Assembly: GCA_025058055.1 (NCBI GenBank)
Contig: JANXEU010000007.1
Location: 379-64,378 of the forward strand
DNA from: Candidatus Calditenuaceae archaeon
GTDB taxonomy: Archaea; Thermoproteota; Nitrososphaeria_A; Caldarchaeales; Calditenuaceae
DNA length: 64,000 bases
Reading direction: 5' to 3'
Below, in pieces: positions 57,732-62,313 of the stretch. The first letter of the stretch is position 1. Each line of letters begins with the position of its first letter. Position numbers and translations under genes: made by a program. The notes under the pieces were generated by a model. It made no database searches, was not told the DNA's origin, and saw only the letters and a list, made by a program, of their open reading frames with translations.

Positions 57732-58529
57732 GTGGAGGTACTACTGGTTTACACGCGGCTTAAGGAGGCGAGCGTTGCTCTTGCGTCCAAACTCGAAAAC
57801 CTGATCTCGGGAAGTGGTCACCGCGTGACCGTTATGGACGTCGACTCCTTACAGGAGAGGCGGTTCGATGTGGACTTGGGTGTAGCCATCGGTGGCGACG
57901 GCACCATACTCAGGACCTTTTATCACCTCGAGGAACCAGAGACACCAGTTCTTCCGGTCTCGGTGGGAAGGGGAGGATATTTGGCCGAGGTGGGGCCGGA
58001 GATGGCTCAGGAGGCGGTGGAGAAGGTCGTCGGGGGCTCCTACTATACGGAGAGGCACATGAGGGTGAGGGTGGAGGTCGATGGCGACGTCGTCGCAGAC
58101 GCCGTCAACGACGCCTACGTCTCTGCCACGGAGCCCGGCAAGGTGATCGAGTACTCCATCGCACTCGACGGGTTCGTCCTCAACGGCATCGTCAGTGACG
58201 GTCTGGTGGTCTCAACTCCCGTGGGATCGACGGCCTACAACTTCTCCTGCGGAGGGCCTGCGGTGGACGACACGATGGAATGCTTCGTCATGGCCCCAGT
58301 CGCTCCGATCACGTATTTCAGACCGTTGGTCGTTTCGGGTCTTAAGACACTCGAGCTAAACGTTATAGGAGGCAGAGCGTCCGTCCTCTGCGACGGCTTC
58401 GCCAGGACTGACGTCACGAACTCCGTGAGGTTCTTCAGATCGCCTCACTACGCCGTCATCGTCAGGGTCGGCAGGGGGCCCCTCTTCGAGAGGAGGTTGA
58501 GGAAGAGGCTAGGTTGGACGGTGAGGTGA
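57732..58529 (+). CDS. ppnK: NAD(+) kinase
   Basis: AIGGDGTILRTF GGDG motif, NDAYVSATEPGK and VSTPVGSTAYNFSCGGP conserved blocks. The start is GTG per the ORF track. Confidence 0.8.
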   Translation: MEVLLVYTRLKEASVALASKLENLISGSGHRVTVMDVDSLQERRFDVDLGVAIGGDGTILRTFYHLEEPETPVLPVSVGRGGYLAEVGPEMAQEAVEKVVGGSYYTERHMRVRVEVDGDVVADAVNDAYVSATEPGKVIEYSIALDGFVLNGIVSDGLVVSTPVGSTAYNFSCGGPAVDDTMECFVMAPVAPITYFRPLVVSGLKTLELNVIGGRASVLCDGFARTDVTNSVRFFRSPHYAVIVRVGRGPLFERRLRKRLGWTVR

Positions 58530-58933
58530 AGAAGGACAGGTACGTGGTTTTGGACGCTACTCCATTAATCGTCAGCCCATCGGTCCCCACGGGCGAGGCT
58601 GTTGCCGTAACGACGCCCTCGGTCGTCTATGAGCTCCTCAGAACCACGTCAGAGGTTCAGGAGGCGCGAATCACGGCGCTGCTGGAGGCGGGCCACCTCA
58701 ACGTCATGACGCCGTCCAAAAGCTACTTGGAGAGGGTCTGGCGGTCTATGAACAAAAGGGAGAAGTCTGGCGCGTCGGAGGCTGACGTTGAGGTGATAGC
58801 CATAGCCCTGCAGCTGGCCGACGCTGGAAACGACGTCGTCCTCCTCTCAGATGACTCAGTCGTCCAGAAGGTCGCGGCGAAATTGGGGATCCGCTGCAGG
58901 GGGGTGAAGTATCCTAAGCGTGAAGGAGCATGA
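58514..58933 (+). CDS. PIN-domain protein (VapC/Nob1-like nuclease fold)
   Basis: Acidic quartet positions VVLDATP, ...SEADVEVIAIA and VVLLSDD. It overlaps ppnK by 16 nt and the next gene by 4 nt. Confidence 0.5.
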   Translation: MDGEVKKDRYVVLDATPLIVSPSVPTGEAVAVTTPSVVYELLRTTSEVQEARITALLEAGHLNVMTPSKSYLERVWRSMNKREKSGASEADVEVIAIALQLADAGNDVVLLSDDSVVQKVAAKLGIRCRGVKYPKREGA

Positions 58934-59832: not shown

Positions 59833-60423
59833 TCACAGTTTGAGCCTGTTCACCAAGCTCCTTGCCAACTCCAGCTCCTCCGGCGAATCTACGTCCATCA
59901 GCTCCAGAGGGTCGACCTCGACGGCAACGGCCGACCCGATGTGACGCATCACCACCCTCTTTGCTCCCTCGTCGCCTTCTAGGGCCATCAAGTCCTTGAA
60001 GTACCTCGAGCTGAAGGCCACCGGGCTGCGAACCTCCCCAGCGACTGCGCAGTAAGCTATCCCTTCCCCACAGGCCTTCACCAACTTGTTCAGCGTTTCG
60101 GACCTCACGAAGGGCATGTCGCCGGGACAGATGATCACACCTTCAGCCCTCGCCATCACCGCTTCAACCCCCTTCCTTATGCTCGAGGACATCCCTGATG
60201 ACCAATCCGAGTTCAGGACCACCTCCACGCCCTTCGGCAGAACGCTCCGGACCCGTTCAGCCATGTAGCCGAGCACGACCACGACGGGACTGCATTCAGA
60301 GCCAAGAGCCGCCTCGACAACCCTCCTCACCACCTCCTTCCCCCCGACCTCTTCGACCAGCTTGAACCCTCCCCTCATCCTAATCGAGGCACCCGCACCG
60401 AGAACAATGGCCGCGAACCTCAT
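59833..60423 (-). CDS. MobA/MocA-like molybdenum cofactor nucleotidyltransferase (likely molybdopterin cytidylyl- or guanylyl-transferase)
   Basis: FAAIVLGAGASIRMRGG-KL (the GxGxSxRMG loop of MobA/MocA) and a C-terminal ...CPGDMPFV. The ORF track starts at TTG 60438; ATG 60423 is preferred. Confidence 0.65.
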   Translation of the reverse strand: MRFAAIVLGAGASIRMRGGFKLVEEVGGKEVVRRVVEAALGSECSPVVVVLGYMAERVRSVLPKGVEVVLNSDWSSGMSSSIRKGVEAVMARAEGVIICPGDMPFVRSETLNKLVKACGEGIAYCAVAGEVRSPVAFSSRYFKDLMALEGDEGAKRVVMRHIGSAVAVEVDPLELMDVDSPEELELARSLVNRLKL

Positions 60424-60462
60424 TCCATTTTCACCCAACTCAACGTAACATTCTTATACCAT

Positions 60463-60475
60463 CTTATTACAATAA
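60463..60475 (+). promoter_or_regulatory. TATA-like box (TTATTACAATAAT) upstream of small K-rich ORF
   Basis: It lies 18-30 nt upstream of ATG 60493. The divergent MocA-like gene starts on the other side. Confidence 0.35.
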
Positions 60476-60492
60476 TTGCTGAGTGATGGAAG

Positions 60493-60624
60493 ATGCCAGC
60501 TAAGAAGGTGAAGAAGAAGGCAGCGAAGAAGAAGGTGGCGAAGAAGGCTCCGGCCAAAAAGAAGCCGGTTGCCAAGCCACCGGAGAAGCCACCAGCACAG
60601 GCAGCCCCACCGGCCGGGACATAA
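60493..60624 (+). CDS. Unannotated 43-aa lysine/alanine/proline-rich basic protein
   Basis: ATG...TAA reads MPAKKVKKKAAKKKVAKKAPAKKKPVAKPPEKPPAQAAPPAGT, with host-like AAG/GCG codon usage. It is below the ORF-track size cutoff. The two listed minus-strand ORFs here (60420..60656, 60500..60706) are low-complexity antisense shadows (FFFAAFFFTF...). Confidence 0.4.
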   Translation: MPAKKVKKKAAKKKVAKKAPAKKKPVAKPPEKPPAQAAPPAGT

Positions 60625-60662
60625 GCTTCCCCAGGCCCCAACACAAGACGATGCATTTTTTG

Positions 60663-60911
60663 TTACTTCGCTTCCGTTCTCTTCGATCTGTTCCTGATCT
60701 CCTCAATTAGCTCCTCTCTGGTCTTACCCTCGGTAGGTATGCCAAGGCGCTCGGCCAGCCTGTAAACCTCGTCATCCGACCCGACCCGGGAGGCCTCAGC
60801 CTTCAGCCTTCCCAGAGTTCTCCCCCACCTCACCAGAACCTCTGGCTTCAATAGCACCCAGATGAGGATGATGGCCGCGATCAGCAGAAGGGCCTCTGTT
60901 ACCGAGATCAA
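60663..60911 (-). CDS. tatA: TatA/TatE-like twin-arginine translocase component
   Basis: A single N-terminal TM helix (LLLIAAIILIWVLL) is followed by the amphipathic KPEVLVRWGRTLGRLKAEA, like the FGPxKLPExxRxLG motif. Confidence 0.55.
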   Translation of the reverse strand: MISVTEALLLIAAIILIWVLLKPEVLVRWGRTLGRLKAEASRVGSDDEVYRLAERLGIPTEGKTREELIEEIRNRSKRTEAK

Positions 60912-60917
60912 TGGAGC

Positions 60918-61208
60918 TCACTTCTTCTCCTTGAGCTTCGCCGCGATCTCGTCCGCTATCTGATCCTTCGTCTTGCCCTCGGTCTCGATTCCGAGCGACC
61001 TAGCGATCGATATTATGTCCGCTGAGGACTGCGGAGCAGCGAGTGATGTGGGCTCGCCGACGCCCGATCTCAACTCCTCTTGAAGGTCCCTAGAGGCCCT
61101 TTCGTACTCCCTCCTCGCCTGACCTATCGCCCTAGCAATCTTCGGGATCTTCTCAGGGCCCCAGAGGAGTAAGATGGCAACTACAACGAGCACGATCACC
61201 CACTCCAT
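60918..61208 (-). CDS. tatA: TatA/TatE-like twin-arginine translocase component (tandem paralog)
   Basis: MEWVIVLVVVAILLLWGPEKIPKIARAIGQARREYERA is a near-canonical TatA TM+hinge+amphipathic helix. Its C-terminal tail is similar to the neighbouring paralog (LGIETEGKTKDQIADEI vs LGIPTEGKTREELIEEI). The ORF-track ORF 60918..61754 is an over-extension running antisense into rfcS. Confidence 0.65.
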   Translation of the reverse strand: MEWVIVLVVVAILLLWGPEKIPKIARAIGQARREYERASRDLQEELRSGVGEPTSLAAPQSSADIISIARSLGIETEGKTKDQIADEIAAKLKEKK

Positions 61209-61341
61209 GCCCTGGATCAAGGCCTTTTCCCAACCGCTGTTTCGCCCTCCACGTAAAAAGGTTTCCCGGCAACGCGCAGAGACCTGCACGGGGCTCGGAC
61301 TAGCTTTAACTAATATTGTGTGGTCGGGGGTAACTAACGGA

Positions 61342-62313
61342 ATGAGCGAGGGCATCCCTTGGATCGAGAAGTACAGGCCAAAATCGCTCAGGGACGTGAT
61401 CGACCAGGAGCCGATTGTTGAGGCGCTGACGGGTCTACTGAAGACGAAGGGCATCCCCCACATGATCTTCACCGGCCCCCCGGGCGTAGGGAAGACTGCC
61501 GCGGCACACGCCCTCGCGAGAGACCTCTTCGGCGATAGGTACGTCGAGGACGGACACTTCCTCGAGATCAACGCATCTGATGAGCGCGGTATCGATGTGA
61601 TCAGGGAGAAGGTCAAGACGTTCGCTAGGATGATCCCAATGGCTGGACCGGGCTTCAAGATACTGCTCCTCGACGAGTCGGACATGCTTACGGCCGAGGC
61701 CCAGCACGCCTTCAGGCGGGTGATGGAGCAGTTCTCTGCGACCTGCAGGTTCATCCTCGCGGCGAACTACCTCAACAGGATCATTGAACCTATACAGTCC
61801 CGATGCGCGGTGTTCAGGTTCAGGGCGATCGACGAGTCCGGCGTTAGGAAAATGGTCGAAAGGGTCTCAAAATCTGAGGGGATAAGCGTGGAAGAGGGGG
61901 CCCTGAAGGCCCTCTACGAGGTCTCCGAGGGCGACCTGAGGAAGGTCTTGAACGTCCTGCAGACCGCTTCGATCTACTCTCGAACCGTGACGGCCGACCT
62001 CGTTTACAGGGTCGTGGGGTTCGCGGCTGCTGTCGATGTGAGGAGGATGATGGAGCTGGCCCTGAACGGCAAGCTCGACGAGGCCAAACGGGTCCTCAGA
62101 CAAGCCCTCTACGTCAACGGCGTGTCCGAGAGGGAGATCTTGAACCGGATGTACGCCGAGGTCTTCTACATCCCCGTGAGGGAGGTCGACAAAGCTAGGA
62201 TCCTCAGCCTGCTAGGAGAGATCGATTACCGCATATCACAGGGCGCCACGCCAGAGGTTCAGATCATGACGGTCCTCGCGACCCTTCAATCAGCTTCCCA
62301 GGCCCTCAAGTAG
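61342..62313 (+). CDS. rfcS: Replication factor C small subunit
   Basis: PWIEKYRPKSLRDVIDQE, Walker A GPPGVGKTAAAHALARDLFG, DEAD-like LLDESDMLT, and a SRC-like arginine finger region (QSRCAVFRF). The ORF track starts at ATG 61174; the family N-terminus fits Met 61342 (MSEGIPW). No intein. Confidence 0.9.
   Translation: MSEGIPWIEKYRPKSLRDVIDQEPIVEALTGLLKTKGIPHMIFTGPPGVGKTAAAHALARDLFGDRYVEDGHFLEINASDERGIDVIREKVKTFARMIPMAGPGFKILLLDESDMLTAEAQHAFRRVMEQFSATCRFILAANYLNRIIEPIQSRCAVFRFRAIDESGVRKMVERVSKSEGISVEEGALKALYEVSEGDLRKVLNVLQTASIYSRTVTADLVYRVVGFAAAVDVRRMMELALNGKLDEAKRVLRQALYVNGVSEREILNRMYAEVFYIPVREVDKARILSLLGEIDYRISQGATPEVQIMTVLATLQSASQALK

Follow-up and report, generated by a model that had tools for sequence, protein, structure and literature searches.

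A conserved lysine/alanine/proline-rich small gene of Caldarchaeales archaea and its candidate role as a nucleic-acid-binding polycation

A 64,000-nucleotide stretch of DNA from a Candidatus Calditenuaceae archaeon (contig JANXEU010000007.1, hereafter the window) carries on its plus strand a 43-codon open reading frame (ORF), here called K-ORF, which runs from an ATG at position 60493 to a TAA at 60622-60624 and translates to MPAKKVKKKAAKKKVAKKAPAKKKPVAKPPEKPPAQAAPPAGT, a 4.4 kDa lysine/alanine/proline-rich product of the form MPAKK...PPEKPP...AGT. A first-pass annotation, made from the letters of the window, had placed the ORF exactly there and had taken it for a real small gene. Seven syntenic and intact versions, in-frame insertions and deletions, a periodicity of substitutions bounded by the start and stop codons, and a ratio of non-synonymous to synonymous differences (pN/pS) under that of the neighbouring enzyme gene uphold this proposal, and K-ORF is very probably a genuine small gene of hot-spring archaea belonging to the Caldarchaeales (Aigarchaeota-type). 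The whole of the observations is best explained, with a probability that we put at roughly 0.55, if the product is a disordered nucleic-acid-binding polycation whose gene has its own promoter and its own oligo-T terminator. The reading frame, its conservation, its coding-type evolution, the conserved signals that flank it and the absence of a known domain are read directly from the sequences.

A reading frame conserved in two clades

The gap that holds K-ORF is 239 bp long, with a MobA-like gene on one side and on the other a TatA-like gene whose stop is at 60663, and the GC content drops there from about 0.60 to 0.49. The product contains 15 Lys, 11 Ala and 9 Pro (35%, 26% and 21% of residues), has neither Arg nor aromatic residues, and carries a net charge of +14 with an isoelectric point (pI) of 10.8; PAKK occurs in it twice, at residues 2-5 and 20-23. 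Among the 646 ORFs of at least 25 amino acids in the window it is the sole one with at least 20% Lys and at least 33% Lys plus Arg, the long ORFs of the window having 4.3% Lys against 7.3% Arg. Fourteen of its Lys codons are AAG and one is AAA; AAG accounts for 77% of the Lys codons in the long ORFs of the window, where GCG is the most frequent Ala codon, so that the codon choice of K-ORF fits the genome, as the first-pass annotation had said in calling its AAG and GCG codons host-typical. An ORF of this length is unremarkable alone and, its size not being significant by itself, the case depends on comparison with relatives.

Six further versions of K-ORF, all derived from metagenomes, serve as comparators. 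A search with the MobA-like protein led to three contigs of metagenome-assembled genomes assigned to Caldarchaeales/Calditenuaceae (L002, L003 and L004; L013 and L014 are identical to L004) at 72-79% identity, which form clade 1 together with the window, while a second clade was reached through MobA-like homologues at 56-58% identity (L012 from NCBI, L015 from ENA and L017 from JGI). An intact ORF starting with MPAKK is present in all seven loci between the genes for the MobA-like protein and the TatA-like protein TatA-2, on the strand opposite both; the clade 1 relatives have versions of 43, 44 or 42 amino acids and the clade 2 genomes versions of 47, 53 or 55. The gene order TatA, TatA-2, K-ORF, MobA-like is maintained in 7/7 loci, as is a spacing of 69-71 nt from the MobA ATG to the K-ORF ATG.

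All three clade 2 versions were annotated as genes by three independent pipelines of public assemblies. No gene was called in the gap on two Logan contigs of a close clade 1 relative, and the exact K-ORF product had no match in the gene-call collection. The assertion that proteins of this kind are routinely missed by gene callers thus applies to the close relatives, where the ORF is uncalled, and fails for the three more distant genomes, where it is called. Beside the more distant MobA-like homologues L016 and L018, which lie in different and partly bacterial contexts, the ORF is not present. K-ORF is known from two clades, wider searches having been uninformative. An exact look-up of the seven peptides, the three called ones included, found none of them in a collection of 15 billion proteins, and protein database searches with the 43-residue peptide and with ORF78, an antisense ORF considered below, gave no matches. 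Considering that even the called homologues are absent from the protein collection, the distribution of K-ORF cannot be read from these protein-level negatives. Products that are very short or of low complexity seem to be omitted from that collection, which blinds protein-level searches to such genes. JGI metagenome contigs contained no match for the MPAKK...KPPEKPP DNA pattern, nor for a profile of the MobA-like neighbour.

Pattern of substitutions

The variable columns of the clade 1 alignment fall on the first, second and third codon positions of K-ORF as 4/8/22 (chi-square p=4e-4), and those of clade 2 as 6/7/18. In the 69 nt upstream the corresponding counts are 4/7/4, with no periodicity (p=0.55), and directly after the stop 24 of 30 columns vary, likewise without periodicity. 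The phase pattern is confined to the ORF, and the periodicity therefore begins at the plus-strand ATG and ends at the plus-strand stop. Gap runs within K-ORF are 3, 6, 9, 12 or 15 nt long, and those outside it 1-2 nt. The ATG is invariant and the position of the stop is kept within each clade after the conserved C-terminal motif, the stop codon itself being TAA in the window and TGA in the other six sequences.

Values of pN/pS are 0.06-0.29 for K-ORF and 0.19-0.32 for the MobA-like gene, with synonymous divergence (pS) of 0.30-0.61 and 0.27-0.62, respectively. Synonymous divergence equal to that of the neighbour, combined with lower non-synonymous divergence, indicates ordinary purifying selection and no extra constraint at the nucleotide level. 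By general protein-coding criteria, the frame is kept, indels are in-frame and there is a synonymous excess within the start and stop. Frame conservation and the synonymous/non-synonymous pattern in relatives had been named beforehand as the check on the gene; the frame proved to be kept and the pattern coding-like.

Promoter and terminator signals

Upstream of K-ORF, an AT-rich, TATA-like box at 60463-60476 on the plus strand is a candidate promoter. It comprises CTTATTAC at −30 to −23 from the ATG followed by AATAAT, and its AT-rich stretch TTATTACAATAAT at 60464-60476 corresponds to −29 to −17. Across clade 1 the box reads CTTATTACAATAAT and is nearly invariant, its variable columns being 60464 and 60475; clade 2 has at equal distance a weaker, T-rich form, (T)TTTCA(C/A)AATAGAAA. 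The related contigs show CTTATAAC, CTTTAAAG or CTATAAGA upstream of other called genes, about −34 to −22 from the ATG, and this placement suggests that mRNAs in these contigs are mostly leaderless. From the position of its box we infer a leaderless or near-leaderless mRNA for K-ORF as well. The TATA box ascribed to K-ORF in the first-pass annotation is thus plausible, given that CTTATTAC is positioned like the boxes of related genes, and the promoter has the standing of a candidate.

The 69-nt region between the divergent K-ORF and MobA-like genes contains a second conserved TATA-like box, CTTATACC (reverse complement GGTATAAG), at 60453-60460 on the minus strand. Its TTATAC (60454-60459) is invariant in 7/7 sequences while the bases around it vary, and the box is similar to CCTATAAGAG, which precedes the L012 gene for argininosuccinate synthase. 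The GGTATAAG box probably serves the MobA-like gene, and it may be used in both directions.

An invariant GAGTGA at 60481-60486 on the plus strand (−12 to −7 from the K-ORF ATG) has a mirrored counterpart in the GGTGA that precedes the MobA-like ATG, and the conserved block CATTCCAYTTTCACC represents the MobA start plus this GGTGA on the opposite strand. GAGTGA could be a Shine-Dalgarno-like element (GTGAT pairs with the 3' end of 16S rRNA) or a promoter-proximal element. The former reading was not adopted, because Shine-Dalgarno enrichment is lacking and most nearby called genes look leaderless: in a crude, window-wide test with internal start-like codons as the comparison, Shine-Dalgarno 5-mers occurred at 11.3% of candidate starts and at 11.6% of internal ones. 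The same elements belong to an imperfect inverted repeat that links 60420-60436 with 60481-60495 (CATTCCATTTTCACC against GAGTGATGGAAGATG), so that both divergent genes have G(A/G)GTGA...GGA(AG)ATG, invariant or nearly so in the seven genomes. The repeat could be an operator common to both genes for a dimeric regulator, or simply two Shine-Dalgarno-like elements.

Downstream, a T6 run (ATTTTTTG) at 60656-60661 on the plus strand, 31 nt past the stop, is a candidate archaeal oligo-T terminator of K-ORF. It is invariant in 7/7 sequences within an otherwise unconserved stretch, and the stop precedes it by a constant 31 nt in clade 1 and 34 nt in clade 2.

Properties of the product and comparison with known proteins

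The seven versions have in common an N-terminal MPAKK, 4-8 (A/G/P/V)xKK units whose number varies by genome, one or two KPP(x)EKPP units, and a short Ala/Ser/Thr/Gly end. Lys, Ala and Pro together make up 71-86% of residues, the pI is 10.5-10.8, and no aromatic residue occurs. Arg is likewise missing from all seven, Lys being the sole basic residue, a usage that may point to regulation by lysine methylation or acetylation; both modifications are common among the chromatin proteins of thermophilic archaea. A single-sequence AlphaFold2 prediction is all coil, with no secondary structure (predicted local distance difference test, 70; predicted template modelling score, 0.14).

In Pfam, neither the window protein nor the L012 version matched a family at E <= 10; the L015 version drew just two chance matches (E 1.5 and 9), both unrelated. 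NCBIfam contained no family for the product (Rv3852_fam reached E=3 and 8.4 bits, the cut-off being 100), and the sole match in a PDB sequence search was a viral capsid tail (E=0.74). Specifically, there was no Pfam match to the chlamydial histone-like proteins Hc1/Hc2 (Pfam Hc1), and no Pfam or NCBIfam match to the archaeal chromatin families (histone fold, Alba, Cren7, Sul7d, MC1) or to small basic ribosomal protein families. A link to ubiquitin-like or SAMP proteins, prompted by the C-terminal Gly of clade 2 and a nearby JAB gene in that clade, was rejected: the product has no beta-grasp domain and no GG end, and in clade 1 the JAB gene is not adjacent. The description of the product as H1-like or nucleic-acid-binding accordingly stands as a compositional likeness and not as homology, of which none was found in Pfam, NCBIfam or PDB.

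This likeness is closest to the C-terminal domain of linker histones H1/H5: about 80% Lys/Ala/Pro, Lys rather than Arg, AKK/PAKK-type repeats, high positive charge, predicted disorder and a variable number of repeats, the K-ORF product having the Lys/Ala/Pro-rich disordered tail by which this class was assessed. It differs from H1/H5 (PF00538) in lacking the winged-helix globular domain and detectable sequence homology, in having the S/T-P-x-K motif in 0/7 versions, and in being archaeal and just 42-55 amino acids long. Kinetoplastid H1 is a stand-alone protein without a globular domain; this absence is common to it and the K-ORF product and makes it the nearest analogue in architecture. Background to both the H1/H5 tail and kinetoplastid H1 includes Kasinsky et al. 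2001, as cited in PMC10919886 and PMC9239181.

Lys/Ala/Pro repeats of a like type form the bacterial PAKKA/AKKA tails (Hlp/HupB, M. smegmatis Ku, Rv3852, HBHA and the KPAA repeats of Pseudomonas AlgP), which also vary in repeat number; the tandem pentapeptide-type repeats that define such tails are present in the K-ORF product. In the Ku and Hlp of M. smegmatis, the Lys-rich PAKKA repeats engage DNA, bring about apposition of its ends and promote their joining, and tails of this kind are said to have "evolved repeatedly" (PMC3553676); the literature treats them explicitly as convergent and supports binding to nucleic acid driven by charge. The H1-like tail of AlgP is associated both with the nucleoid and with granules of polyphosphate (PMC9239181). 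In these proteins the repeats are appended to folded domains (the HU fold, the Ku core and others), whereas the K-ORF product is the repeat alone with a Pro-rich end. With the small archaeal nucleoid proteins (Alba, Cren7, Sul7d, MC1 and histones) the K-ORF product has in common that it is small, basic and Lys-rich, belongs to an archaeon of thermophilic descent and is presumed to coat DNA; those proteins possess a defined fold, in contrast with the K-ORF product, for which no secondary structure is predicted. A 74-residue candidate from Methanomassiliicoccus (PMC7613761) resembles it in being small, basic and Lys-rich.

Tiny Lys-rich ORFs that start with MPAKK also occur in viral contigs of IMG/VR (L058, L071, L054, L021/L032/L067, L024/L025 and L050), for example MPAKKAVKKKVVKKKVSKKK (20 amino acids) and MPAKKATKKAAKKATKKVTKVTKSIPKKGGGKKGGYSSGY (40 amino acids), and the motif is found as an N-terminal tail on many larger phage proteins. 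The N-terminal MPAKK(A/V)xKK is identical to that of K-ORF, and some of these ORFs are 20-40 amino acids long with 30-55% Lys; none has the KPP(x)EKPP part or a Caldarchaeales context. A viral origin is unsupported, since among 54 matches to the MPAKK(A/V)xKK DNA pattern in viral contigs 0 had the rest of the protein. The MPAKK N-terminus is thus a recurrent motif and neither a family nor demonstrable homology; the viral ORFs may be DNA-condensing peptides, tied to K-ORF by the motif only. The composition of the K-ORF product is of a known type, that of Lys-rich low-complexity polycations, and the product is a member of none of the families compared.

A model for the function of the product

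Transcription, translation, disorder in vivo and a binding partner are what we infer from these observations. The model proposes that K-ORF is transcribed from its own promoter in the 69-nt divergent region common to it and the MobA-like gene, and that the transcript would end at the oligo-T terminator. The product would be a chain of 42-55 residues without a folded core, its N-terminal two thirds consisting of (A/G/P/V)xKK repeats with a net charge of +13 to +17 and no Arg, and its C-terminal third of a Pro-rich KPP(x)EKPP segment. Such a chain is expected to bind polyanionic nucleic acid, most probably DNA, through non-specific electrostatic contacts, and neutralization of backbone charge could bring about condensation, bridging or duplex stabilization in a thermophile, in a mode comparable to that of the Lys/Ala/Pro-rich C-terminal tail of H1 and of the PAKKA-repeat tails of mycobacterial Hlp and Ku. 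If the gene is real, DNA has perhaps even to slightly better than even odds of being the principal partner.

Several considerations weigh against this model. Searches of Pfam, NCBIfam and PDB linked the product to no DNA-binding family, and its proposed function is assigned by composition only; Lys-rich tails bind RNA, polyphosphate and membranes too, and the gene context (Tat components and a nucleotidyltransferase) offers no functional hint. The comparators are all metagenome-derived, and the seven sequences in two clades are not phylogenetically independent. As to the strand, the antisense frame has its wobble position in common with K-ORF and a pN/pS of 0.07-0.43, and the second position of the plus frame is more variable than the first (8-9 against 4 columns), which alone slightly favours the minus frame; the changes at the second position are mostly Val/Ala exchanges. 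Finally, 3-nt slippage of AAG-rich DNA could occur even without coding.

The alternative that survives best accepts the gene and assigns the polycation to another polyanion or surface: rRNA or the ribosome, where it would act as an RNA chaperone or as a small basic accessory protein, polyphosphate granules, or membranes, in the manner of cell-penetrating or antimicrobial Lys/Pro-rich peptides. We consider this unlikely, though well within reason. The compositional features on which it draws are identical to those behind the DNA reading; AlgP, with its H1-like Lys/Ala/Pro tail, spaces polyphosphate granules (PMC9239181), Ku-tail peptides penetrate cells (PMC10739243), and the recurrence of MPAKK-type sequences, as tiny ORFs and as N-terminal tails, among many unrelated viral proteins implies that the motif is functionally promiscuous. 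Set against these points, the product has no signal peptide or hydrophobic segment for export, and in the case of the ribosome the variable repeat number speaks against a precise fit, while an occurrence in two clades is unlike that of a core ribosomal protein. Nothing in the present analysis discriminates between DNA, RNA and polyphosphate.

Antisense and non-coding readings of the locus

Two minus-strand ORFs overlap K-ORF. ORF78 (60420-60656, 78 amino acids, Phe/Ala/Gly-rich) is best regarded as an antisense shadow frame and not a gene, since its start and stop are unconserved and it has no periodicity outside K-ORF. The second, of 68 amino acids (60500-60706), is an artefact that overlaps the 3' end of the TatA-2 gene and is not maintained in relatives, where ORFs of 40 and 57 amino acids with different ends occur. 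The first-pass annotation had dismissed both as low-complexity Phe/Ala/Gly artefacts. The dismissal is borne out by the unconserved start and stop of ORF78 and its termini, which are not coding-like. The reason given for it falls away, because low complexity proves nothing about a frame that has its wobble position in common with K-ORF and shows nearly the same dN/dS signal; the composition, too, is right for the 78-residue ORF and wrong for the 68-residue one, which is Ser/Pro-rich.

In the converse reading, which we judge very improbable, ORF78 would be the real gene, encoding a small hydrophobic membrane protein within a TatA-1/TatA-2/ORF78/MobA-like operon, and K-ORF its shadow. ORF78 lies on the strand of all three neighbours, begins 6 nt past the stop of TatA-2, and its end overlaps the MobA-like start in an ATGA. 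Its frame is open in 7/7 loci with pN/pS in the coding-like range given above, and the order of phase variability (minus-frame position 2 < 1 < 3, 4/8/22) fits the minus frame. An open antisense frame is to be expected, however, as no codon for Lys, Ala, Pro or Gly can give rise to a stop in it, and dN/dS alone cannot choose the strand, for the two frames have the wobble position in common; pN/pS is lower in the plus frame in 6/6 pairs, though not decisively. The strand was decided instead by the boundaries of the periodicity and the conservation of start and stop, along with the gap lengths and the T6 run, and on the first two counts ORF78 does poorly. Its start is unconserved (ATG, ATG, TTG, TTG, at differing sites), and the L015 copy is fused to a 150-residue ORF; in clade 2 its stop is shifted, preceding the MobA ATG by 10 or 33 nt, so that the ATGA overlap is clade-specific, and this overlap follows from the Met-Arg codons of MobA. 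The 11 N-terminal codons lie in the stretch in which 24/30 columns vary, and the 23 C-terminal codons have no wobble enrichment (4/7/4). The conserved run that reads T6 on the plus strand reads A6 on the minus strand, which counts against ORF78, and gene callers preferred the plus-strand ORF in 3/3 cases with a called gene.

That the stretch is untranslated, being either a regulatory or antisense RNA amid convergent and divergent genes or polypurine (AAG-rich) DNA that is conserved, is scarcely credible: its plus strand is strongly purine-rich (AT skew +0.36), the 69 nt upstream are more conserved than K-ORF itself and an imperfect inverted repeat links the start regions of K-ORF and the MobA-like gene, but substitutions in K-ORF have a strong 3-nt periodicity, its Lys codons change between A and G only while the third position of Ala and Pro codons takes all four bases, ATG and stop position are conserved with indels in-frame only, and synonymous sites diverge as fast as those of the neighbour gene. 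A structured RNA at K-ORF was also considered and rejected, with no Rfam match, an unremarkable folding score (z = −1.35) and a covariation term of +0.31 that lends no support. The antisense-gene and non-coding readings are thus largely excluded, leaving K-ORF as the coding frame.

Neighbouring genes

The MobA-like NTP (nucleoside triphosphate) transferase gene (59833-60423, minus strand; 196 amino acids; PF12804, E=1.8e-34) starts at an ATG at 60423, as in the call of the public contig, and is divergent from K-ORF, 69 nt apart. Convergent with K-ORF is the gene for TatA-2 (60663-60911, minus strand), a TatA-like membrane protein of 82 amino acids with no Pfam family, which forms a tandem with a second TatA-like gene, TatA-1 (60918-61208, minus strand), a pair conserved in all related loci. 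Both proteins end in the common motif LGI(E/P)TEGK(T/S)(K/R)(D/E)(Q/E)(I/L)..EI, similar to a SAP/HeH (Rho_N-like) helix-extension-helix; the match of TatA-1 to SAP_new25 is below threshold (E=0.0012).

The long listed ORFs at 61174-62313 (plus strand) and 60918-61754 (minus strand) are over-extended shadow readings across each other: TatA-1 represents about 96-104 amino acids of the 278-residue minus-strand ORF, and for the replication factor C small subunit the likeliest start is MSEGIPWIEKYRP (about 61342), which relatives also use. Farther away, window positions 57732-58933 hold a NAD-kinase-like ORF (GGDGT motif) and a PIN-domain gene (PIN_6/DUF3368) with a 16-nt overlap; a PfkB-family sugar kinase gene comes next after the PIN-domain gene, an order common to the Logan contigs of relatives.

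Significance

Lys/Ala/Pro polycations occur in eukaryotes as the tails of H1 and in bacteria attached to DNA-binding proteins. A search of the literature for an archaeal mini-protein made of Lys/Ala/Pro and standing alone had no result, which is weak evidence of novelty. Small low-complexity genes slip past gene callers and protein databases, and inventories of archaeal chromatin based on annotated proteomes would therefore miss such peptides. We also entertain, as a long shot, that K-ORF encodes a stand-alone, H1-tail-like "mini linker histone" of Caldarchaeales, an abundant Lys/Ala/Pro polycation on archaeal chromatin that would possibly be regulated by lysine modification, since Lys is used exclusively. 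Current opinion traces the C-terminal domain of H1 to a bacterial origin; if real, the mini linker histone would be an archaeal counterpart of that domain, convergent or otherwise. Should the product not be both abundant and bound to DNA, it would be an ordinary lineage-specific small protein. If it is both, it would represent a new type of nucleoid-associated protein in a thermophilic TACK lineage, and a natural minimal system in which to model how charge drives DNA condensation at high temperature.

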